Origin: a virus
Lineage: Duplodnaviria > Caudoviricetes
IMG/VR virus record: IMGVR_UViG_2924263452_000001
Span: 1-64,000 of that record
Length of the DNA stretch: 64,000 nucleotides
Direction: 5' to 3' (one strand)
This document shows positions 392 to 48,872 of the stretch, piece after piece; the first letter of the stretch is position 1, and each line of letters begins with the position of its first letter. A model generated the notes under the pieces. That model was not told where the DNA came from. It saw nothing but the letters and a program-made list of their open reading frames with translations, and made no database searches. A program made the translations under genes and the position numbers.

Positions 392-2113
392 TTAATTATG
401 CATTCTTCTCAGCGATAGCTGCCTGTGCTGCGGTGAACAAAATGCGGAAACTTTTGCCCCTCTTTTTCGTTTCCCATCAACTAAACACCCCATAGGACTT
501 TCTTCTGGATTAAACCGCAAATACCAATCGAATCCATCTTTTCTTGCAATTATTTTTTCCACAAAAGCTTCAATTACTGACTCTGGTATGTCTGCATCGC
601 TATCAAAGTTAGTGTATTGATCCAAAGCATATTTTAAAATAGTTATCTTTTCTTTTGAAGTAACTTCGTCAATCTCACTTTCAATTTCACTTGGTTCTAA
701 TTCCGCAAGTTCTTTTTTTAACTGAGAGATGCTGTTTTCTGTGCTTTCCTTCTTTAATATGAAGATATCTCTTGCAAGTTCTCCATCAGCACGCATTTCA
801 ATTAAGTTGTCAAGTCGTTTCAGGAGTTTCTGTAATTCTTCTTTTTTCTGATTAATTATATCTGTATTGTCGCATACTTCCTCTTCATCGTCAATATGCT
901 TCTCTAACATAGATTCAGCCAGCGATAAAACTTGATCCGTGTCAGAAAGATAATTCTTAAAAATATACTTAGCCATCATCTGCAGTTTCCATCCGGCAAT
1001 CATTGGAGTTTGGCATATACCATCAATCGGCAATCCCTTATTCAGTCTAGTTCTTACTGTTCCGGTTCTAATGGAACTATAGCACTGATACCCATATTGT
1101 TTTCCCTCTGTCGTATTGTGCCACATTTTACGGTTGAATTTATGCCCGCATTCGCATTCAAGCAGTTTCACCCACACATCGCTAGGTGGTTTTTCGCCAT
1201 ACATACGTTGACCGGAAGTGTCTACTGATAAAGTTTTTCTGCGACTATTTATCCTTTTTTGTGCTTGGTCGTATTCTTCTTCTGTGATAATCGGTTTATG
1301 ATTTCCTCTTACCTGTGTAAATTCCATATCACCAAAATTGCGTATTTTCTTTTGTTCCAAGAAATCTGGTGTAAATTCCTTATGATATGTAATAATGCCA
1401 CAATAAAAAGAATTGCGTAGTATTTTAGAGATATTACTTACATGCCAATTTGATTTCCCCATAGCAGTTAAACGCCCGGCTTTTTCCAGCTCAAACTGAA
1501 TTTTTCGCATTCCCCAACCGTCCAAATACCAATCAAAAATCATTCTGACAGTTTTCGCCTGTTCCGGATTTATAACCATATCTTTACCGACACGATCATA
1601 TCCAAGTATGTTGCCATTTCCATAGAAAACTCCATTTTCCATAGAAGTCTGCTGCCCGGATTTTACACGAACTGATGTTTTGCGGCTCTCATCTTGTGCC
1701 AAAGTTGCCATTATAGTTAAGCGTAGTTCTCCATCACCATCAAAAGTTTTAATGTTATCATTCAGGAAAAATACTTCTACACCTTTGCTTTTTAGTTCTC
1801 TTGTATATTGAAGCGTATCAACAGTGTTTCGGGCAAAACGTGATACTTCTCTGGTTAGTATAAGGTCAAAATTGCCACTTGACGCGTCTTGGATCATCTG
1901 CATAAATTGAGGTCTTTTCTTCGCAGAAGTCCCAGTAATACCTTCATCTACATACATTTTTACAATGTCCCACTCAGGATGTTGTTGTAAAATTGGTTTG
2001 TACCAGTCTTTTTGGTTTTCAAGTGCTGATAATTGTGCTTCGTGTTCAGTTGAAACACGCGCATAAATTACAACTTTTCGGCTGGTTGGTTTTTGATTGT
2101 AAATATCATACAT
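392..2113 (-). CDS. Large serine recombinase (phage integrase)
   Basis: YARVST catalytic motif, SRFARN, recombinase domain, CECG zinc ribbon, coiled coil. Confidence 0.95.
   Translation of the reverse strand: MYDIYNQKPTSRKVVIYARVSTEHEAQLSALENQKDWYKPILQQHPEWDIVKMYVDEGITGTSAKKRPQFMQMIQDASSGNFDLILTREVSRFARNTVDTLQYTRELKSKGVEVFFLNDNIKTFDGDGELRLTIMATLAQDESRKTSVRVKSGQQTSMENGVFYGNGNILGYDRVGKDMVINPEQAKTVRMIFDWYLDGWGMRKIQFELEKAGRLTAMGKSNWHVSNISKILRNSFYCGIITYHKEFTPDFLEQKKIRNFGDMEFTQVRGNHKPIITEEEYDQAQKRINSRRKTLSVDTSGQRMYGEKPPSDVWVKLLECECGHKFNRKMWHNTTEGKQYGYQCYSSIRTGTVRTRLNKGLPIDGICQTPMIAGWKLQMMAKYIFKNYLSDTDQVLSLAESMLEKHIDDEEEVCDNTDIINQKKEELQKLLKRLDNLIEMRADGELARDIFILKKESTENSISQLKKELAELEPSEIESEIDEVTSKEKITILKYALDQYTNFDSDADIPESVIEAFVEKIIARKDGFDWYLRFNPEESPMGCLVDGKRKRGAKVSAFCSPQHRQLSLRRMHN
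396..434 (-). other. Probable prophage att junction; displaced 3' end of host pyruvate phosphate dikinase
   Basis: An alternative minus frame reads AAQAAIAEKNA* (396-431), like the PPDK C-terminus (RLAAAQAA...). The similarity stops abruptly at about 432. Confidence 0.6.
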
Positions 2114-2940: not shown

Positions 2941-3474
2941 TTATCCTTTCTTATTCCATAATACTGTTCTATTATCATTTATGCTTTTTTGTACATCTAT
3001 AATTCGCTGGTTTTTACTTCCACGAAACTGCAATCTCAAATCTTTTTCTTCTATCTTAAATTCTCCATCAACTAAGACATTGCATAATTCTAATATCTTT
3101 AAATATGTAGGATTTTGAATTATCGCTTCATATGTATATCCTGTATATATCCAAAGTTGCTTGCCTGGATATAAAGATTTGAATTTTTTGCATAAATAAT
3201 ATGTAAACTCCACGTTATCAAGTGGATCTCCACCAGATAATGTGAACCTCGAAATTGACGGTTTTGATAATATGTCAAATAAGTAATCAAATGTATTTTG
3301 TGTAAATGGGAATCCTCCACATTTATTCCATGTTGATTGATTGTGACATCCTTTGCAATGATGGGAGCAGCCTTGCACAAACAAAGTTACTCCTACACCA
3401 TTACCATTATTTACGTCAAAATTATCAATTCCGGCATATCTGAAGTCGGTTTGTTCACCGTTAATGAGGTTCAT
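2941..3474 (-). CDS. nrdG: Anaerobic RNR activating protein (radical SAM)
   Basis: CSHHCKGC, SGGDP, FRGSKNQR; adjacent to nrdD. Confidence 0.95.
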   Translation of the reverse strand: MNLINGEQTDFRYAGIDNFDVNNGNGVGVTLFVQGCSHHCKGCHNQSTWNKCGGFPFTQNTFDYLFDILSKPSISRFTLSGGDPLDNVEFTYYLCKKFKSLYPGKQLWIYTGYTYEAIIQNPTYLKILELCNVLVDGEFKIEEKDLRLQFRGSKNQRIIDVQKSINDNRTVLWNKKG

Positions 3475-5815
3475 TCCTCTTAACTTTTTTCTCCAGATTA
3501 TTATTAAAGTGTTTCACTCTGAAATCAACTTCCTGCTGTTTGCCCTCGTTGAATGCTTCAGTATAGTCCCCGGTAAGATATCCGGTCACACGTCTTAATC
3601 TTCTGATCTTTTTACATCCGCACATAGGACACGCTTCTCCGATTTCATCTGTATACCCACAATTAGTACACATATCATTCGGAACATTTACTGCGAAGTA
3701 CGGAATATCTTTATCCATTGCATAGTTGACAATTTCTTCAAGTGCATCAATATTGTTTTTAATGCTTGACGCAAGCTCTACATATGTAATACAACCAGCA
3801 GAACTATATCCAGTAAGTTGCGATTCAATGTCAATTTTTTCAAATGGACTCATTTCTTCCCATACTGGCACATGCATTGAGTTTGTGAAGAATTTTTTAT
3901 CAGAGACATTTGGAATTTCTCCGTACTTTTCTTTGAATTTAGTCATAGCAGTAAAACATAAGTTTTCTGCCGGAGTATAATAAACCCCGAAGTTTAAACT
4001 ATATTCTTTTTTATACTCAGTACATCTGTCTTTGAATAACTGCTCAATTCCTTTTGCTAACATCATACCTTTTTCTGTTGTATGATTACAGCCAACAAGA
4101 ATCTGTAAAGTCTCAGCAAGACCAAGCTGCCCGATAGCAAGAGTTCCATGTTTCATGGCGGATTCGATGTTTTTACCATCGTAGCCCTCCATAGTATAAT
4201 TTTCATACATGAATTTTGCAGAATCTGGAGATTGTTTACATATCCATAAATATCTCTCAATCAGCATTTCTTTTGCTTCACCAATCTTTTCATCAAGATA
4301 ATCCATAAAGCAACTCACAAGTAGTCCTTCGTCAAAATCTTTGTTTCCAGTAAACAGTTTTTTATTTTTTAATTTTTCTTTTGTTTCCATTGCAAGAGTT
4401 GGCATAATGATTGTTACCGGGCAAATATTTCCACGTCCATCTTTTGTCTGACCAAATCCGTTAATATCCCAACCATTTGCAGTTCTGCAACCCATCGTTG
4501 AGAAATATGTCTTTGGATCATTTGGATCATATCCTTCATTTCCAGACCAATCACAATTTGCATAATTAGGATAAAGCCTCTGAGCTGTTGACCTGAGTGC
4601 CAATCTGTACAAATCATAATTAGGATCTCCTGGTTTTCTGTTTACGCCTTTCATTAACTGGAAAATTCCACATGGGAAAATACTTGTTTTATGTAATTTT
4701 CCAATTCCTGATATTGATACGTCTAATAACGCTTTAATTACCATTCTTCCTTCTGGTTCTGTACATGTACCATAGTTAATAGAAGTAAATGGCAACTGAT
4801 TTCCAGACCTTGACTGCAAAGTATTAAGATTGTGATATAAAGCTTCAACCGCTTGCTTTGTTTCGAGGATTGTATCATACATTGCTGATTGATAAAGTAA
4901 CGGATCAAGCTTTTCTTTATTTGCGAAAAAGAAATCTTCTTCTTTTAATCCAGTTTCTTCATAAAATCTTTCTTTGTTTGTGTCAATCCAATCTTCAAAT
5001 CGGTTTCGTACAATTCCAATTTCATCTTCATAACTGTCAAATAACATCCCCATAAGGTCTATTTGAGAAAATGCTGCTGTGTTTTTTAAATATGCTACAA
5101 TGTAATGTTTTCTGAAAGATTTTTTTACATATGGTATTAACGTCCAGTCAATATGCGTTGCAGAAACGCCACCAAACTGCTGTAAAGATTGTAGCTGGAA
5201 TATTACTGCGATTAATTGTCCCGCAGTATTTACAGACTGAGCAGGACGAACATCTGTCTGTCTTGTGTTAAATCCATTTGCAAGTAATTTGTCGAATGGT
5301 ATGCTCAAACAGTTATGCATACCTGCTGCGTAACTATCAAGGTCGTGGATATATATTCTATTGCTCAAATGATTTGTCCTTGACATTTCCGACATATATT
5401 CATCTAAAGCAATTTGCTTCATCACTTCACTGTTAACTGCGCCCACACGTCCACCGAATGACTTTCCATCAACATTTGCATTCTGTCTATCATCATTCTG
5501 CGAATTTAAAGTATTTCTTGCTTTTATTCGAATAGGGCTTTTCATTTCCCTTATCCTTGATCTGTCGTTTCTATAAATGATATATTTTCTAGCAACGTCC
5601 ATATCAAATTGTGCGATTTTTTCTTCAACAAGATCCTGAATTTCTTCCACTCCAAGATCTCTCTGAATTTCACTAATACTTGTGGAAATACGTTCTGCTA
5701 TTTCTTTAGCACGTTCTGTTTCCTCACCATCTACTTCATAGAATGCCTTTAATACTGCATTCTGAATTTTTTCGGGTTTAAAAACCTCTGATCTACCATC
5801 TCTCTTGTAAACCAA
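3461..5815 (-). CDS. nrdD: Class III ribonucleoside-triphosphate reductase with ATP cone
   Basis: N-terminal KRDG ATP cone, IHDLD, MGCR, RRVTGY glycyl radical loop. Confidence 0.96.
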   Translation of the reverse strand: MVYKRDGRSEVFKPEKIQNAVLKAFYEVDGEETERAKEIAERISTSISEIQRDLGVEEIQDLVEEKIAQFDMDVARKYIIYRNDRSRIREMKSPIRIKARNTLNSQNDDRQNANVDGKSFGGRVGAVNSEVMKQIALDEYMSEMSRTNHLSNRIYIHDLDSYAAGMHNCLSIPFDKLLANGFNTRQTDVRPAQSVNTAGQLIAVIFQLQSLQQFGGVSATHIDWTLIPYVKKSFRKHYIVAYLKNTAAFSQIDLMGMLFDSYEDEIGIVRNRFEDWIDTNKERFYEETGLKEEDFFFANKEKLDPLLYQSAMYDTILETKQAVEALYHNLNTLQSRSGNQLPFTSINYGTCTEPEGRMVIKALLDVSISGIGKLHKTSIFPCGIFQLMKGVNRKPGDPNYDLYRLALRSTAQRLYPNYANCDWSGNEGYDPNDPKTYFSTMGCRTANGWDINGFGQTKDGRGNICPVTIIMPTLAMETKEKLKNKKLFTGNKDFDEGLLVSCFMDYLDEKIGEAKEMLIERYLWICKQSPDSAKFMYENYTMEGYDGKNIESAMKHGTLAIGQLGLAETLQILVGCNHTTEKGMMLAKGIEQLFKDRCTEYKKEYSLNFGVYYTPAENLCFTAMTKFKEKYGEIPNVSDKKFFTNSMHVPVWEEMSPFEKIDIESQLTGYSSAGCITYVELASSIKNNIDALEEIVNYAMDKDIPYFAVNVPNDMCTNCGYTDEIGEACPMCGCKKIRRLRRVTGYLTGDYTEAFNEGKQQEVDFRVKHFNNNLEKKVKRNEPH

Positions 5816-21963: not shown

Positions 21964-22599
21964 TTAATTTTTACATATATCTGCAATATGCAGACATAAC
22001 TTTTCTGGAATTACGCTACGTTCCACTGCACCCTTTAATCCCTGTGTTCCAGTTTTACTTCCTCTTGGAGCTGGTTGGTGACAAGAATCGCCATTATGAC
22101 ACATTGGCTTGAATTGCGGATCTGGATGATTAGTCCATATATCCGTAGGCTTCATTCTGGTATCTCCATACTGGCAATATGTAATTGTGTATCGTGGCAA
22201 ATTCTTCATAAATGCCATTTTCCGCAAGCCACCTCTAGGATTTTCAATAAACCAATATTTCGGTTGCAACTCACGAATAAGTTCGATTGTATGCTGCACA
22301 AGATTGTCTGACAGCTTCGCAAAATCACTTACTGGATCTAAATTCCCAGTAATGGGATTTTTCTTCCGATGATGTGAAATCGCTGCTATTGAATAACTTG
22401 TACATGGTGGACTCGCCCAGATTACATCCGGCTTGCCAAACTTATCAATAATATCTTTGGCTGTCACTTCCATAATATCAGCATACCAATCAATGTTTTT
22501 ATGTTGTTTGTCTAATTCGATTGTAAAAGTCTCATAACCACGTTGGTTAAAGGCTTTCGCAATGCTACGTGTTCCACTGAATAAATCTACACACTTCAT
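21964..22599 (-). CDS. Short C5-cytosine DNA methyltransferase (invertible 5' end in ON orientation)
   Basis: DLFSG, WASPPC, IENP. Confidence 0.85.
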   Translation of the reverse strand: MKCVDLFSGTRSIAKAFNQRGYETFTIELDKQHKNIDWYADIMEVTAKDIIDKFGKPDVIWASPPCTSYSIAAISHHRKKNPITGNLDPVSDFAKLSDNLVQHTIELIRELQPKYWFIENPRGGLRKMAFMKNLPRYTITYCQYGDTRMKPTDIWTNHPDPQFKPMCHNGDSCHQPAPRGSKTGTQGLKGAVERSVIPEKLCLHIADICKN

Positions 22600-22671
22600 T
22601 TTTATAATGTCTCCTTTTCAAATACCTATGGTTGTGGGATTTCAGAGTGCCAAATCAAAACATTGTTTTAT
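22485..22671. other. Putative invertible segment 1 (spacer ACATTG), ON
   Basis: ATAAAA-ACATTG-ATTGGT (minus, 22485-22502) and ATCAAA-ACATTG-TTTTAT (plus, 22654-22671). Confidence 0.7.
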
Positions 22672-23604: not shown

Positions 23605-24357
23605 TTATACAAGTTTCTCGACAGACTGCCGGTGTTCGGAAATTCTCTTCTCCATAGCTCTACAATACTTCTCTTCGGACTCCATCGCAATGTAATTCCG
23701 GCTTGTATTGATTGCAGCTATACAGGTAGTTCCACTTCCAGCACAGCTATCAAGAACTGTATCACCTTTGTTTGTGTAGGACTTAATAAGCCACTCACAC
23801 AATTCAACTGGTTTTTCTGTTGGGTGCGTTACAACTGAAGGATGTGGTTTCTGGAATCTTAGAATACTTGTGGGGTGCTTCCATTCTCCTAGTTCTTCTC
23901 GATTATCCACAAACTCATATTTTCCATAATTATTGTTGTCACACGCTTTCTTCTTTCCTTTGCTATGGTTCATTGCTCCCAGAACTTTTTGAGGATTATA
24001 CACTGGTGGCTTCTTATAAAAGATACATACCTCTTCATGTACTCTCAAAGGCTGTCTATTCGCATTAAGAAATCCAGTGGAAAGTACCTTATCCCACACA
24101 AGATTGTACTTCCATAATTTTTCCTGGCTTTTCATCAGATCAGCCATAAACATTCCATCTGCGAAAATTGCAATACAACCATTAGGTTTAATGATTCTCA
24201 AATACTGTTCCCACATTTTATCAAGTGGAATAATTGAGTCCCATTTATTATGTGTTCGCTCATATGGAGGATCTACCAGAATCATGTCAACACTTTCATC
24301 TGGAATATCCTTCATAAGCTCTAAGCAATCTCCTTTATATACTTTGTTTAATTCCAT
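23605..24357 (-). CDS. N4C/N6A DNA methyltransferase, beta class
   Basis: DPPY, HPTEKP, DSCAGSGTT. Confidence 0.92.
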   Translation of the reverse strand: MELNKVYKGDCLELMKDIPDESVDMILVDPPYERTHNKWDSIIPLDKMWEQYLRIIKPNGCIAIFADGMFMADLMKSQEKLWKYNLVWDKVLSTGFLNANRQPLRVHEEVCIFYKKPPVYNPQKVLGAMNHSKGKKKACDNNNYGKYEFVDNREELGEWKHPTSILRFQKPHPSVVTHPTEKPVELCEWLIKSYTNKGDTVLDSCAGSGTTCIAAINTSRNYIAMESEEKYCRAMEKRISEHRQSVEKLV

Positions 24358-24363
24358 TTCTGC

Positions 24364-24498
24364 TCCTAATGATAGTTTTATTCAAGAGCGATGGTTGTCG
24401 TATTTCAGGCTTCAAAACATTGTATTAAGTGATTGCCTTAATTTTAAAAGTACGTGTTCATCGTGGTTTCAAGCCACTAGATGAAACTATCATTTTAT
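24364..24498. other. Putative invertible segment 2 (spacer CTATCA), directly upstream of the MTase RBS
   Basis: ATAAAA-CTATCA-TTAGGA (minus, 24364-24381) and ATGAAA-CTATCA-TTTTAT (plus, 24481-24498). Confidence 0.75.
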
Positions 24499-25123: not shown

Positions 25124-25351
25124 TCATTTATTTTTTCTTTCTGTAAAATAAATTGTCACGGAGCAGCCATCACTTGTATCTTCCTTTGTATATCTGTCGT
25201 ATTTGTAATCATTTCCAATACCAATATCTAAATTATCTTCTCCCCACTCAGAACGATACACTGATATTTGAGGATATGATTCTCCGCATCCAGTTAACAT
25301 AAAAACAGATGCAAGAACGCATCCTGCCAGTAACAAAACTTTCTTTTTCAT
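25124..25351 (-). CDS. Small lipoprotein
   Basis: Signal peptide with LTGC lipobox. Confidence 0.7.
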   Translation of the reverse strand: MKKKVLLLAGCVLASVFMLTGCGESYPQISVYRSEWGEDNLDIGIGNDYKYDRYTKEDTSDGCSVTIYFTERKNK

Positions 25352-25962
25352 TATTTAGACCTCTCTATCTTTATTAAAGCTACACACTGTTCGTATGCTA
25401 TTCCCCAATTTATTGCTTCTCTTCCCTTCTCATCAAAGATCTGGAGATATGCCCGATACATCATCTTTGCAATAATGTCTGGCTCTACTCTACCAACAGA
25501 ACCACCAAATGCCGGAATAACCACAGATTTACAATTATTATTGAGTGCTTCCATAAGTGTCGTCCTCATACACTGATATATAATTGTTGGATCTTTTATT
25601 TCTGATGGTGTTCGCATTGTTGGTGTATGTATCAGCCGAATATTACGACGTGGGATTTTAAAAGAAATACTTGTTCCCACAGGTTGTTCTCCATACAATT
25701 CTTGAACAATCTTTTTCTGTACCATCAACTGTAATTCATTACCGAAATACTTAGTAAGTGCGCCATCATATCCGCCATCCATTAAACCGTAGGAATTTGC
25801 AGGAGAAACTACTGCATCAATATCTGACTCATGTTTTTCCATAAAAGTCTCGAAATCACTCCATACAAATTTTACAGGGGCAACTTCATCGAATATCGGA
25901 TGGAAGTGTCTCTTCCATGCGTCTATCATATTTTTGTTAAAATCTAACAAGCATATGTCCAT
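25351..25962 (-). CDS. Macrodomain protein
   Basis: VSPANSYGLMDGG.D, PTMR, IPAFG. Confidence 0.88.
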   Translation of the reverse strand: MDICLLDFNKNMIDAWKRHFHPIFDEVAPVKFVWSDFETFMEKHESDIDAVVSPANSYGLMDGGYDGALTKYFGNELQLMVQKKIVQELYGEQPVGTSISFKIPRRNIRLIHTPTMRTPSEIKDPTIIYQCMRTTLMEALNNNCKSVVIPAFGGSVGRVEPDIIAKMMYRAYLQIFDEKGREAINWGIAYEQCVALIKIERSK

Positions 25963-26270
25963 TATTATATTCTACCTTTCCATTTAAAAATATCTGCTAA
26001 TAATAGCAAGCACAATATTCACAATAGTATCAATGACATTCTTATATTCACCTAAGAAGTTGTCAAGTTTGTACATGAATAGTTTCATTTTTGTTTTCAT
26101 GCTCTACCTCCATATTTATGTAAAAAAGTAAAAAACAAAACACCTGTTCCTTGAAAAAATTTCCAATAAATGTTAATATTGGTGGAGGTAGTACGGTTGG
26201 TAAGAACATTGTGCATGTAGTTTAAGAAGTTATGCGTAATGTAGCACTGCCAACCTGAATCCTTTTTCTT

Positions 26271-26320
26271 AGAACAAGTGTTTGTATGTGTATTATACAA
26301 AACAAGTGTTCTGATGTCAA
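26271..26320 (-). promoter_or_regulatory. sigmaA promoter with two LexA (Cheo)-box-like sites
   Basis: TTGACA-N17-TATAAT; AGAACAAGTGTTTG (26271-26284) and AAAACAAGTGTTCT (26299-26312). Confidence 0.65.
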
Positions 26321-26400
26321 CTCTTTTATAAAATACTAATTTTAAGTATTATTCCATAGTTTCTAATGTTACAATTTGTTTTCATTTTATACCTCCTGTT

Positions 26401-26517
26401 TTACAATAACTTCTTGTCATATTTATTTAGTTTTTCTATAATCAAGTCATTTGGTAATATATTCTTACAAAAATATGCTGTTGCAAATGGACTTCCCTCT
26501 ATTGCCAAATTCATATT
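26401..26517 (-). pseudogene. Disconnected C-terminus of the adenine MTase
   Basis: Minus frame NMNLAIEGSPFATAYFCKNILPNDLIIEKLNKYDKKLL*; joins the plus-strand ORF in frame on inversion. Confidence 0.85.
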
Positions 26518-26982
26518 TTAACAAGGCGAGAGGAAGATAATGGCTAACAACATAGGATATTTAACAAGTAAACTTACTCCAGAACATCAGGAAATGTATA
26601 CCCCATATTATGCTGTTGAACCAATTGTAAAATATATCCCAAAACAATATAAAATCTGGTGTCCTTTTGATAAAGAATGGTCTGCATTCTATCAAACTTT
26701 CAAAAATCTTGGCTATAATGTAGTCAAATCACACATAGACGACGGGAAAGACTTCTTTATATATGAGCCGAATGAATACGACATAATAGTTTCTAATCCA
26801 CCATTCAGTATTAAAGACAAAATACTTGAACGGTTGTACGAATTAGGTAAACCATTTGCCGTATTGCTGCCATTAAATTCATTACAAGGGAAGTCAAGAT
26901 ACAAATTTTTCTCAAAAGGTGTCCAGCTTTTATCATTCGACCAGAGAATAGGTTTTCATAATAGATCAAATATGAATTTCGT
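26504..26982. other. Putative invertible segment 3 (spacer TATGAA), OFF
   Basis: Perfect 12-bp inverted repeat AAATATGAATTT at 26507-26518 and 26968-26979. Confidence 0.9.
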
Positions 26983-26992
26983 CTACATCTAA
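26540..26992 (+). CDS. Inverted N-terminal part of an NPPF-type adenine DNA methyltransferase
   Basis: YTP, WCPFD, NPPF; the only credible plus-strand ORF in the window; truncated at the inverted repeat. Confidence 0.85.
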   Translation: MANNIGYLTSKLTPEHQEMYTPYYAVEPIVKYIPKQYKIWCPFDKEWSAFYQTFKNLGYNVVKSHIDDGKDFFIYEPNEYDIIVSNPPFSIKDKILERLYELGKPFAVLLPLNSLQGKSRYKFFSKGVQLLSFDQRIGFHNRSNMNFVYI

Positions 26993-27253
26993 CTTTTCTA
27001 ATGTCCAACAGCCGCACATGGTTTTTAACCAATCTTCTGCCTGTTCTTTTGATGAATAAATCCCTCTAAGAAGTGATGCAGTTGTCAAATTCAACCATCT
27101 GTATCTAAGAGCAACCCCATTTACCGACCACTTATCTACAACCAGCATAATAAGAAACTCTTCTTTGTCAGTATATAAGCGTGGAATTTCTAACTGTTTC
27201 ACTTTGTATATATCCCCAACATGAATATTATTTACTTTCTTCAAATTTTTCAC
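26966..27253 (-). CDS. Hypothetical protein whose C-terminus changes with inversion
   Basis: Ends DEIHI* now and DEIHILTRREEDNG* when flipped. Confidence 0.65.
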   Translation of the reverse strand: MKNLKKVNNIHVGDIYKVKQLEIPRLYTDKEEFLIMLVVDKWSVNGVALRYRWLNLTTASLLRGIYSSKEQAEDWLKTMCGCWTLEKLDVDEIHI

Positions 27254-27941
27254 CTATACTTTCAACTTCCCAGTCTCTATTTCTTGTAGCCCATGTGATT
27301 GCTTCTTCTCTTGTAGAAAATACCTTTCCTGAAATCGTCCCGCTTGATAGGTTTACCCATCTGTATGTATTATCTATCATTGGAATCTCTGATTTATCAT
27401 TCACTAAAAAGAACCAAAAATCATCAGTATCTTCCCAATTTGTCGCATTATGCTCTGTAACCAAAAAGAGATTCTTAAATTGTTTTCCAAGTATTTCTTT
27501 GATATCCGGCAAATCCTCTGAATATAAATTCAGTTCTCCTGTAATTAAGTCAATCTTTTCTATTTCCATAGGTTTAAATGCAATTACCGCCCACTGTGGA
27601 ATATCTAAAAATTCTGTTGACTCGTCCACGACATTAAAGAAATCCTGTCTGTTGACCATTCTGCGTTCATGTGCTTTTTTAATGATTTCTTTCATAGCTT
27701 CATCATTTTCTACTTCAAGTACAATTTTGGTAAAACTGCCACTAATCCACCGAGCGAAAAGTTCTTTGTCAACTCTCGCATTTGGGCTGATTGTGTAATC
27801 ATTGTTAGTCTCATTTAAAGCAGCAACATTTCTTTTAAACCATTCACAGAAGAAAGCTGTAGCCCCATGTGCCACCATAGCCCCAAGTTTTCCAGGACTC
27901 ATATTTAAGCTTTTATTTACTACAATAACCTGTTTATACAT
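27228..27941 (-). CDS. Pth2-type peptidyl-tRNA hydrolase with an extra C-terminal domain
   Basis: KQVIVV...MSPGKLGAMVAHG, TKIVL. Confidence 0.75.
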   Translation of the reverse strand: MYKQVIVVNKSLNMSPGKLGAMVAHGATAFFCEWFKRNVAALNETNNDYTISPNARVDKELFARWISGSFTKIVLEVENDEAMKEIIKKAHERRMVNRQDFFNVVDESTEFLDIPQWAVIAFKPMEIEKIDLITGELNLYSEDLPDIKEILGKQFKNLFLVTEHNATNWEDTDDFWFFLVNDKSEIPMIDNTYRWVNLSSGTISGKVFSTREEAITWATRNRDWEVESIGEKFEESK

Positions 27942-40537: not shown

Positions 40538-41494
40538 CTATTCCCTTCTGGTTGGTTTCTGTATAATCACCGCATTCATACTCTGTTTGCCAAATCCTTT
40601 ATAATCTCTTGCCATAAGTGTATTTGCACAATTGGTTATATGATTTACATGGTTTGCATAATCACTTACAATTACTCCTTGACGATATTTTTCGTCTGTA
40701 TCAGATCCCACATGTGGCGATCTAATGAACAGCCCCCCCATGTCTGATTGTATGAGAATAGGATCTATACAGTTTTCCACTGTCAATCATTTCCTGTAAT
40801 GCCTTTTTCTCTTTGGCTGAATCAACGTAATATTTATCTGGCACGTTTTCTTCATTCTCAAGAATATCGTACATTGTTATGTCACTTTCAAACCCATCTG
40901 GAAGGTTGAAATTGCCGTTATCAAGTTCTTTTCTGATGATTACAAGATATAATCGTTCTCTGTTCTGTGGAATACCAAAATCTTTGGCATTCAGAACTTT
41001 CCAGTAAGTGTTATATCCATATTCGTGAAGCTCTTCGATAAACATATCGAATGTGTTTCTGAAAGATTTTCCTACAATATTTTTTACATTCTCATAAATT
41101 CCCCAGGCTGGCTTATTTGCTCGAACAACACGCAGCCATTCAACCAACAGAGAAGAACGTGTCTTATCAAGGTTTTCGCTCCCACAATTAGGACACTTAT
41201 CTCTTTTTGACCAATGAACTGTCAAAGGGTTATATGTAAATGGCTCTCCGTCATCACCTGTACAATCTTTACAAGTCCATCCACTACCAGCTTTCTTTCC
41301 AGCAATACTGAAATCTTGGCATGGCGATCCCCCACAAATCATATTGAATGGTAACATGCTGTTTTCATCAACTTTCGTAATATCTCCAATGTTAAGGTTT
41401 GGATCAACTCCATGAATAGCACAATATGAAGTTGCGGCAAACTTATCAACTTCGCAAAAATTTACCAGTTTCCAACTTTGAATTAATTTTTCAT
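40538..41494 (-). CDS. Large subunit of the split C5-MTase (motifs II-VIII); start codon lies in an inverted segment, C-terminus set by a G tract
   Basis: FCEVDK, GDI, GGSPCQDFS, ENV, PQNRER; C-run 40733-40739. Confidence 0.85.
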
Positions 41495-41652
41495 TGTAAA
41501 ACTATTGTAGAAAAGTGCTGATTTAGTGGCATTTATACTATATTTTGTATGCTATATGTATATGTTGACACTAAATATAGCGTTTATTGCCACTAAAAAT
41601 CAGGTAAAAGAGGTATAAAAATTGGAAAATAACGATAAAAAATTAATTTAAT
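41477..41652. other. Putative invertible segment 4 (spacer AATTAA), OFF
   Basis: ATGAAA-AATTAA-TTCAAA (minus, 41477-41494) and ATAAAA-AATTAA-TTTAAT (plus, 41635-41652); AAGAGGT RBS and TTG (41622) on the plus strand. Confidence 0.85.
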
Positions 41653-43225: not shown

Positions 43226-43956
43226 TCATCCCCACTGATCCGCCATTGCTTTGGCGATTCCTGGGAATGTTTTACTTCTTGCTTTTGCTCTCCCGGCTTG
43301 ACCACCAGTTGTATTTTTGATTCCCTCACACCAACCAATCCTTTTGCCTTTGCATTTTTTACCTTGGCAAATATATTGTGGCTCTGGAACTGGCAAATTA
43401 TTTTTTCTGTCAAGCACTGGAAGATTTTTAAGCCATAAACATGTTCTCTTCTGGAAATAATTCTCCGCATCATTCTTGTTACTAGCAAAATAATACGGAT
43501 GAACAATTTGATTTGGCTTTCTCCAATGTGTATTCATATACCCCACTGGATTTTCAATTGCAATTTTCTCACAATCTGCATTTGCTATTTTTAAGAAAAA
43601 TTGTTCTGCCTCATTTCTTTTTTCTATTCTAGCGGCTACTTTTTCTGGTGGATTACACTTTAATGAGTAATGCCGTGTTCCTGCAGATGTAAGATATGTA
43701 CATGGTGGAAATGCAATTATTATATCCCATTTCCCGTCTATCTTATGTTTGATTCCATCTGTTGTCTCGAACTCACAATTTCCGTTCAACAAAGGAATAA
43801 CATCTCCCATAACGTGCCATTCTGGATGATTACCAGAACATTCAATTATGTCACAGCTATATGCTTCATGTCCTTTATTTCTAAACTCAATACATACTCT
43901 TTGTGATTCTTCACACGCCACTAATATTTTTAATCTATGTTGAAAACAACTTTCAT
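43226..43956 (-). CDS. Phage C5-cytosine MTase-like protein; true start lies in an inverted segment
   Basis: KILVACEESQ, AFPPC, ENPVG, RSKTFPGIAKAMADQW. Confidence 0.8.
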
Positions 43957-44095
43957 TTTATAGTTTAAAAATACGATGGTTGTCGTATTAGAAATCAGAT
44001 ATGAAAGAGTTTCTTCCTATTATATATAGAAACAGAATTGTGAAAGGACGATTAGAACGTGAGTTCAGAGACAGTAGATAAAAGTTGTTTTTTAT
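43939..44095. other. Putative invertible segment 5 (spacer GTTGTT), OFF
   Basis: ATGAAA-GTTGTT-TTCAAC (minus, 43939-43956) and ATAAAA-GTTGTT-TTTTAT (plus, 44078-44095); GAAAGGA RBS and GTG (44059) on the plus strand. Confidence 0.88.
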
Positions 44096-47783: not shown

Positions 47784-48733
47784 TTACTCAACTTCTACCC
47801 CTATATAATCCATTACATGTCTTATTCCTAATCCGCCATTTTCAATAGGTTTCATACAATAATTCCAAAGTTTCGGATGCGTCTTTTTGAGCATTTGGAA
47901 ACGATTTGGTTCTTTTTCAAGATGACAACCAAACCCGCACCAGACGCAGCCACTTCTTCTCACTCCTGTTGTATGATATTTTCCATCTTCAAACACAATA
48001 TCACCATAAACTGAAGCATATGGAATTTTCTTAGTGTACAAATATTCAAGTACATCCTGCTCAGTCCAGAATCCCATAGGCTGACTCTGTGGACGTTTTT
48101 TATTAAAGGCGTTACATCCAGTTTTCATGTAGTCATTTTTCCTTTTATGACTTTCTTCTGCCATTAAGCCTAAAATTGGATGCTTACCTGTTTCTTTTTC
48201 ATACTCTAATGATGGTTTCTTTTTCATGATCGTACAACACTTATCAGAAATCAAGAAATCTGCATCAAGCAAATATTCATACTTCTTAAAATTATACTGA
48301 GTAGAAAGCTCGCCCGTTTTAGGATTTATGTACTCTCCGTGTAATTGCTGCCATCTGGTATTCCCAGGCTTCGCATAATGGACTTTGTTCGCCACCTCTT
48401 TGCTGATTACCGGATAGCCGTATTTTTGCACAACCTTTTTAAAATTTTCCTTTGGTCGTAGCCATGTGACATTATCAATAGTTTTTACAAATTCACGAAG
48501 TTCCGGATATTCTAAGCCAGTGTCAGTATATACAGCTTCAATGTCAGGATATATCTTTCTTGCTATATCAAGTAATACTGTACTGTCTTTACCACCGGAA
48601 AAAGCCACATAAACCTCTCCGCCATAAAACTCATACCATTCACGTATACGATTTTCAGTCTTTTTTATTTTCAGTTCAAGGGGAAGTGTCTGCAGTATCT
48701 TAAGACTTTCTTCCGTGTAAATTCTGTTTTTAT
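47784..48733 (-). CDS. PAPS-reductase family protein; true start lies in an inverted segment
   Basis: FSGGKDS, DTGLEY, CC..MKKKP, RSGCVWC; frame is open upstream of 48608 but has no start codon. Confidence 0.85.
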
Positions 48734-48872
48734 TATGGACTCTGGAAAGCCTTAACTACGGCATTCCAGAATTGTACATAATAAACAAACAGTTAGTAAT
48801 ATAAGAACAATTATAAAAGGAATAGCATATTTATGGGAAAAATTGAAATAAACAATAAAAACAGAATTTTAT
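48716..48872. other. Putative invertible segment 6 (spacer ACAGAA), OFF
   Basis: Perfect 16-bp inverted repeat AATAAAAACAGAATTT at 48719-48734 and 48854-48869; RBS and ATG (48833) on the plus strand. Confidence 0.9.

Follow-up and report, generated by a model that had tools for sequence, protein, structure and literature searches.

Why would a phage genome carry the two ends of one gene on opposite strands? The question was raised by a small methyltransferase (MTase) gene located around 26401-27253 of the window, i.e. the whole stretch of 64,000 nucleotides that was analysed, which forms the first 64 kb of a 127-kb IMG/VR phage record (IMGVR_UViG_2924263452_000001; ~75% complete). In the window, the first 146 codons of this gene are read from the plus strand and its last 35 from the minus strand, and the flip of a segment bordered by a 12-nt inverted repeat separates the present arrangement from a contiguous one. 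Comparison with related genomes showed that the inversion is real and constitutes a rapid ON/OFF switch. We consider it highly probable that a programmed, reversible and site-specific inversion is at work, by which the phage MTase gene is switched ON and OFF.

An MTase gene in two orientations

The elements of the switch are as follows.

26401-26508, minus strand: 3' fragment of the MTase gene (codons 147-181 plus stop), with the conserved GSPFATAYF strand
26504-26521, no strand: left recombination site, with repeat arm 26507-26518 and 6-bp core 26510-26515 (TTCATA on the plus strand), from the sequence and the alignments of relatives
26507-26979, no strand: invertible segment of 473 bp including both 12-nt repeats, OFF in the window and reversed with respect to both flanks in L005-L011, G003, G004 and G005
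26530-26536, plus strand: putative ribosome-binding site GAGGAAG of the MTase gene, on the invertible segment, as read from the sequence
26540-26977, plus strand: 5' part of the MTase gene (codons 1-146), from the sequence, with NPPF as residues 86-89
26965-26982, no strand: right recombination site, with repeat arm 26968-26979 and core 26971-26976 (TATGAA), from the sequence and the alignments of relatives
26966-27253, minus strand: upstream gene of unassigned function, 95 amino acids (aa) in OFF and 104 aa in ON (ending LTRREEDNG), the ON form being natural in L009 and L148

The plus-strand open reading frame (ORF) 26540-26992 was the only substantial one on this strand near the switch. After codon 146 it runs into four unrelated codons (FVYI) and a stop, giving a product of 150 aa. 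On the minus strand, ORF 26401-26514 (37 aa) contains GSPFATAYF. The inverted repeat is perfect, and 26507-26518 and 26968-26979 are its only two copies in the window. On the plus strand, the right site overlaps MTase codons 143-147; on the minus strand, it overlaps the terminal codons of the upstream gene. When 26519-26967 was flipped in silico, a co-oriented 181-aa gene appeared on the minus strand and the upstream ORF grew from 95 to 104 aa, its stop falling within ATGGCTAA of the MTase start. An identical arrangement was displayed by the natural contiguous relatives L009 and L148.

An earlier note on this DNA had described the plus-strand ORF as the first 146 codons of an NPPF MTase and had placed its last 35 codons at 26401-26508 of the minus strand; both parts are present in the sequence, the second with its stop and with GSPFATAYF. 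It had further predicted that a flip between the repeats would restore the 181-aa gene and extend the upstream ORF by LTRREEDNG, with a stop overlapping the MTase start, and this was recovered in silico as well as in the natural ON loci. The qualification of the inversion as intragenic stood in part only. Inversion and split were borne out, but the two repeats do not lie within one gene, since in the window lineage (lineage 1) one of them is in MTase codons 143-147 and the other, the outer site, is in the last codons of the upstream gene.

MTase homologues were numerous (1484 found) and the best ones were mostly ~181 aa long. The alignment that the earlier note had set as its refuting test turned out in its favour: homologues do run on into GSPFATAYF, and in P0001 (181 aa, 95% identical) the tail that follows N-M-N equals the minus-strand fragment but for one residue. 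Other close relatives (P0002-4, P0011, P0012, P0014, P0017 and P0067) diverged exactly at the break and ended in unrelated tails of ~4-76 residues. Such tails read as the signature of the same break in other genomes, the OFF type being judged from the protein sequence only for P0002-4, P0011 and P0017.

At the DNA level, both orientations were found recurrently among near-identical genomes. Among IMG/VR relatives with 96-99% identical MTases, 4 of 11 were organized like the window (OFF) and 7 of 11 were contiguous (ON). Metagenome contigs of lineage 1 added 7 OFF and 7 ON copies, bringing this lineage to 12 OFF (window included) and 14 ON, although the same sample assembled twice may inflate some of these counts. 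In the contiguous relatives, 26507-26979 aligned in reverse with respect to both flanks and the alignments overlapped exactly on 26507-26518 and 26968-26979, which places the breakpoints within the 12-nt repeat at both ends, as in invertons. The tightest comparison was that of L148 (ON) and L004 (OFF), where only 2 mismatches over ~5.4 kb were recorded besides the flip and where the invertible segment matched at 100% in opposite orientations. The ON/OFF pair L140 / L005 likewise differed by 2 mismatches over ~3 kb. A tree built from 1.57 kb of 22 copies required at least 7 state changes, compared with 7.6 on average for shuffled labels. These near-identical pairs and the tree indicate that switching is far quicker than point mutation. 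About half of the assembled genomes carry the truncated 150-aa MTase gene, which is not a pseudogene.

Two contig ends deserve mention on their own. The 13.4-kb IMG/VR contig L215 stops, to the base, where the 12-nt repeat within the MTase gene (2928-2939) ends, which suggests that the assembler encountered both orientations in one sample. Contig L005 terminates in a fold-back (3457-3541), its last 54 nt being the reverse complement of the preceding C-terminal-fragment stretch; this is probably an assembly artefact, away from the recombination site.

What does the split do to the protein? The natural ON form was modelled by AlphaFold as a class I methyltransferase fold (predicted local distance difference test score, pLDDT, 87; predicted template modelling score, pTM, 0.83) that bears the catalytic NPPF motif. 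Its top structural matches were N6-adenine DNA methyltransferases (M.TaqI, PacII, M.BseCI and CamA), with template modelling (TM) scores of 0.5-0.55 and probabilities of 0.97-1.0. It also matched PHROG 799, annotated as DNA methyltransferase (E 1e-30). Together, model and motif make DNA adenine methylation its likely activity. In this model, the break between residues 146 and 147 interrupts strand 144-149, and strands 156-161 and 168-171 are on the detached fragment, together with the invariant residues F154, Y158, P165 and L168. The OFF product is deprived of its last two and a half beta-strands and, as these include the strands with invariant residues, no active enzyme is expected: going by the model, it should be inactive. 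An alternative, functional C-terminus in OFF was considered and judged unlikely, OFF tails differing in sequence between lineages and ranging from ~4 to 76 residues.

The MTase DNA itself (26581-26932) showed 67-71% identity over ~300 nt to Thermus phages phiYS40, TMA and YS40_Isch, where the matching genes are annotated as DNA methyltransferase or sugar-phosphate nucleotidyltransferase. Similarity at the nucleotide level across hosts so distant is unusual.

Other lineages and sister switches

The switch was also found in a second lineage (lineage 2), whose MTase is 75-78% identical and whose genome shares ~72% DNA identity with the window lineage over 59 kb. It is located at the same MTase codons as in lineage 1, and metagenome copies occurred in both states (12 OFF and 2 ON). 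The repeat of lineage 2 is displaced by one base and its core is CATGAA, not TATGAA; this core change is mirrored in both partner sites and is synonymous in the MTase. When two lineage-2 genomes were compared, the sole local inversion was this segment, here of 476 bp. In this lineage, the upstream gene is a different one and the outer site lies just past its stop codon. Recoding of the upstream tail, which the earlier note had put forward, accordingly holds for the window lineage and fails in lineage 2; it is lineage-specific and probably incidental, as a side effect of where the outer site happens to lie. The lineage-2 MTase start codon is TTG or ATG according to the genome (L134:2501, L136:2501 and L215:2501 versus L125:2501).

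Farther away, MTase homologues of at most 74% identity were contiguous without exception. Among the IMG/VR homologues screened, the repeat was carried by lineage 1 only, and an IMG/VR scan with P0002 revealed no third inverting lineage. A third lineage with 55-59% identical MTases displayed another feature, a poly-C tract near codon 34 of the homologous gene (L015:3090-3105; same place in L022, L028, L030, L043-L046, L048-L055, L060 and L061-L069). Seven Cs, recorded in 16 loci, leave an intact 180-aa frame, and six Cs, recorded in 9 loci, cause a frameshift and a stop at codon 39. No homopolymer tract occurs in the MTase reading frame of the window. From its sequence, the third-lineage tract looks like a slippage-based ON/OFF device of the same gene family, and such switching by other means supports selection on the ON/OFF state of the MTase.

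A near-consensus plus-strand promoter-like site at 26414-26442 of the window aims into the flipped cassette. It was examined as a possible source of the truncated product and rejected, as it is conserved neither in L001 nor in lineage 2.

The MTase switch is not isolated. A blastn comparison of the whole 127-kb genome with five relatives revealed only five local inversions, the MTase switch (number 3) included. The others are listed here with one further candidate.

22485-22671 (inversion 22488-22668): sister switch 1, core ACATTG, at the 5' end of gene 21964-22599; inverted in G001, G003, G004 and G005
24364-24498 (inversion 24368-24494): sister switch 2, core CTATCA, just upstream of DPPY methyltransferase gene 23605-24357; inverted in G001, G002, G004 and G005
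41477-41652 (inversion 41478-41651): sister switch 4, core AATTAA; inverted in G005
43939-44095 (inversion 43943-44091): sister switch 5, core GTTGTT; inverted in G005
48716-48872: candidate sister switch 6, core ACAGAA, perfect 12-nt repeat; proposed from its site design, not polymorphic among the five relatives

Combinations of inversions differed between genomes, and switches 1 and 2, as well as 2 and 3, displayed all four state pairings. All six pairs are built alike: one arm terminates in AAA (often ATRAAA), the opposite arm opens with TT or TTT, and a 6-bp core lies between them. Both partners of a pair have the same core, which differs from one pair to the next. A strict scan for AAA-N6-TTT pairs found only two of the six switches, since the arms are degenerate. 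In five of the six pairs, the left site is inside or at the 5' end of a gene, and the cassette takes away the ribosome-binding site, the start and the first codons; for switch 2, the left site is just upstream of the start codon. The MTase switch goes furthest, its cassette containing 146 of the 181 codons. From the sites as they stand, shared arms and distinct cores suggest that one enzyme can flip each switch separately, with no recombination between switches.

As to the setting, the GC content is 32-37% and the main genes are on the minus strand, except MTase ORF 26540-26992. One complete relative measures 171 kb. Related contigs are labelled as human gut metagenome, and one relative falls in a Clostridia bin. 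Near the switch, the product of gene 25351-25962 is a Macro-domain protein (E 4e-14), and a PTH2 peptidyl-tRNA hydrolase domain (E 2e-18) is present in that of gene 27228-27941. Downstream of the MTase end, the spacer (25948-26383) is variable between relatives and alignments break there. It contains a perfect TTGACA-17-TATAAT on the minus strand (26320-26292), and this promoter-like site suggests that the genes downstream of the MTase would not depend on the switch.

Mechanism, recombinase and competing explanations

A recombinase, presumably of the tyrosine type and most probably encoded by the phage, would pair the two sites, exchange strands at the core and flip the 473-bp cassette. Its sites would consist of core TATGAA flanked by an A-rich and a T-rich arm, in inverted orientation, the outer one being upstream of the MTase ribosome-binding site, in the last codons of the preceding gene. 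In ON, the 181-aa gene is contiguous, directed like all other genes and probably coupled in translation to the upstream gene. In OFF, as in the window, the ribosome-binding site and 146 codons are reversed, with no conserved promoter to serve the cassette. Matching cores within a pair would allow the reaction, and differing cores would block large rearrangements between switches. By this means the phage probably varies its own DNA methylation; a population mixed with respect to each DNA-modification gene might then hedge between hosts with restriction systems that cut unmethylated DNA and hosts with systems that cut methylated DNA.

A wider reading, to which we give an even chance, takes the whole set as a bank of DNA-modification switches, each of them addressable: all cassettes would be served by one small tyrosine recombinase through common arms, private 6-bp cores would keep the five or six of them apart, sites would be writable into coding sequence on both sides, and the poly-C parallel would reflect strong and repeated selection. 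If so, a single phage lineage could yield up to 32-64 methylation or modification types.

Several observations, besides the possible inflation of counts mentioned above, weigh against the proposed switch or parts of it. The ON/OFF contrast was drawn from separate assemblies and is not a direct view of one mixed population. The MTase switch has the weakest arms of all the switches, which fits the fact that three of its four half-sites are in coding sequence. The window displayed 6 pairs of 12-nt inverted repeats at most 1 kb apart, compared with 6.2 +/- 2.3 in shuffled sequences; the repeat alone is not beyond chance, and the case accordingly rests on the split gene and on the comparison with relatives. 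As to the MTase, it scored below the Pfam cut-off for every methyltransferase family (best match EcoRI_methylase, 20.9 bits versus 26.4), no NCBIfam model matched it, and its 181 aa hold no recognisable DNA-recognition domain. The argument for DNA adenine methylation is drawn from the NPPF motif, PHROG 799 and modest fold matches to M.TaqI. Lastly, a second tyrosine recombinase (345-363 aa) was also conserved, and a host enzyme must be considered as well.

Which enzyme flips the segment? Tyrosine-recombinase sites are typically built from inverted arms around an asymmetric 6-bp core. Inverted arms with an asymmetric core shared by both partners (of the 6-8 bp expected) were found here, arm binding and cleavage positions being predicted from the sequence, and the invertase is likely a tyrosine recombinase. 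Within the 127-kb genome, a 240-aa tyrosine recombinase is encoded at ~97.3-97.8 kb. Of the 10 records searched, which cover both lineages, 8 contained this enzyme, among them each of the three with a completeness of at least 94%; the other two are partial (74% and 50% complete). The enzyme is 63% identical between lineages and comprises little beyond its catalytic domain (PF00589, 62 bits versus a cut-off of 27), with a complete catalytic set when aligned to XerA (R81, H183, R186, H213 and Y222). Similarity to FimB and FimE invertase models was weak (E 3e-5 and 2e-4), far below cut-offs. We regard this enzyme as the best candidate, with a chance somewhat better than even.

It is possible, if rather doubtful, that the inversion is real and performed by another enzyme, either the 345-363-aa recombinase, with its full N-terminal core-binding domain, or an invertase of the host. 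The longer enzyme occurred in the three records at least 94% complete, covering both lineages, and in G003, it matched Xer-type models over its full length, and none of the switches is adjoined by a recombinase gene. Since most records are partial, presence and absence do not separate the two phage enzymes. Yet, the architecture of the longer one is that of an integrase or Xer enzyme, whereas the shorter one lacks an N-terminal domain, like FimB and FimE, whose models it matched weakly. To the longer enzyme we assign a limited chance, well short of even. A host enzyme is improbable, as the same arms would have to be recognised in two phage lineages that are only ~72% identical. The third-lineage phages encode two to four unrelated tyrosine recombinases.

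Could the segment invert recurrently without any programme, e.g. by replication template switching at a short repeat, with neither enzyme nor function? The repeat has just 12 nt and such repeats occur at chance frequency. Yet, the four other 12-nt inverted repeats of the window were inverted in none of the five relatives, whereas five sites of one arm design were. Furthermore, two lineages keep the site at the same codons, the core change being mirrored, the switching rate is far above the substitution rate, and the cassette always strips ribosome-binding site and start from a DNA-modification gene. We consider such an unprogrammed inversion very unlikely.

The only recombinase gene within the window encodes a serine recombinase (392-2113, minus strand; 573 aa, Recombinase domain), which might be thought to invert the segment in the manner of Gin (Mu) or Cin (P1). 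It was present in G000, G003 and G004, but G001, the complete G005 (100%) and the five lineage-2 records all carry the switch without it; the gene is not conserved with the segment as it is in Hin, Gin or Cin systems. Moreover, 573 aa and a Recombinase domain denote a large serine integrase, not a small invertase, and the identity of partner sites consists of a 6-bp core and short arms, not of a 2-bp crossover in 26-bp sites. The gene was rejected as the invertase, a role for it being most improbable; it is a variable accessory gene, probably for an integrase. Mis-orientation of the segment by the assembler, which could be feared because all data are short-read metagenome assemblies and contig L005 ends in its fold-back ~20 nt past the switch, is least probable of all, as the 12-nt repeat is below assembler k-mer size, dozens of independent assemblies, from two lineages, agree on these two breakpoints, and both states are internally consistent gene arrangements.

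Comparison with known systems

Phase-variable methylation is well known as a strategy of bacteria, and the inversions described in phages chiefly concern tail fibres. In the present case, gene splitting turns the phage's own MTase on and off, independently of the sister switches, and searches of open-access text retrieved no account of a phage that uses inversion to switch a methyltransferase of its own. Should the proposed function be true, phage populations would be diversified in advance against classical restriction as well as against systems cutting methylated DNA, which would bear on the reading of host range, on phage therapy cocktails and on methylation-based host assignment. The pair-specific cores would be natural inversion sites that do not cross-react, perhaps under one small recombinase, and could serve genetic circuit design. 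For annotation, caution is required as the truncated 150-aa form could be mistaken for a pseudogene.

Intragenic and partial intergenic invertons were described in gut Bacteroides, with a premature-stop class such as thiC (Chanin et al., doi 10.1101/2023.03.11.532203). The switch resembles them by its short inverted repeats, by an enzyme-mediated flip (the enzyme being proposed here), by one state that truncates the protein and by the occurrence of both states in nature. However, the Bacteroides intragenic invertons are chromosomal and wholly inside one gene, whereas the present one is on a phage genome, runs from the end of one gene through 80% of the next, and carries a ribosome-binding site and a start. 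It also belongs to a set of switches whose arms are alike and whose cores are private to each pair. The text of Chanin et al. (doi 10.1101/2023.03.11.532203) holds no occurrence of methyltransferases.

Inversions that alter genes were also reported in restriction-modification genes, i.e. Type I hsdS (pneumococcal PsrA), BREX, DISARM and Type II methylases, as well as in prophage tail fibres (Milman et al., PMC9881135). There too, DNA-methylation genes are inverted internally, often by a tyrosine recombinase, with epigenetic heterogeneity as a result. Those inversions swap specificity modules, with every state functional, and belong to bacterial defence. In contrast, the present switch is a plain ON/OFF split of a small stand-alone MTase, offers no alternative C-terminus and is on the phage side of the conflict.

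In Clostridioides difficile, the tyrosine recombinase RecV is reported to flip several short elements with differing repeats (cwpV, flgB, pdcB and others; PMC5903667 and PMC5386303), mostly regulatory 5' untranslated regions of the bacterial chromosome. One enzyme for several switches is also what is proposed here, and the host range is similar (see the Clostridia bin contig), the two systems being likened by description.

Shared with FimB/FimE and fimS of E. coli are the short tyrosine recombinase without N-terminal domain (a candidate here), the small element and the short repeats. However, fimS carries a promoter and not a coding cassette, and similarity to the FimB and FimE models remained far below cut-offs.

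Among phages, the G segment of Mu (Gin) and the C segment of P1 (Cin) are invertible and give a mixed phage population. Gin and Cin are small serine invertases assisted by an enhancer, and they swap tail-fibre ends, by which host range is changed. Here, in contrast, the serine recombinase of the window was excluded and a DNA-modification gene is switched off, not exchanged.

Phasevarions, finally, rely on MTase switching through homopolymer tracts, which are also found as poly-G tracts in Campylobacter phages. The stochastic ON/OFF of an MTase is common to both, and the third lineage would achieve it in the same manner through C6/C7, whereas in the window the mechanism is inversion, not slippage.

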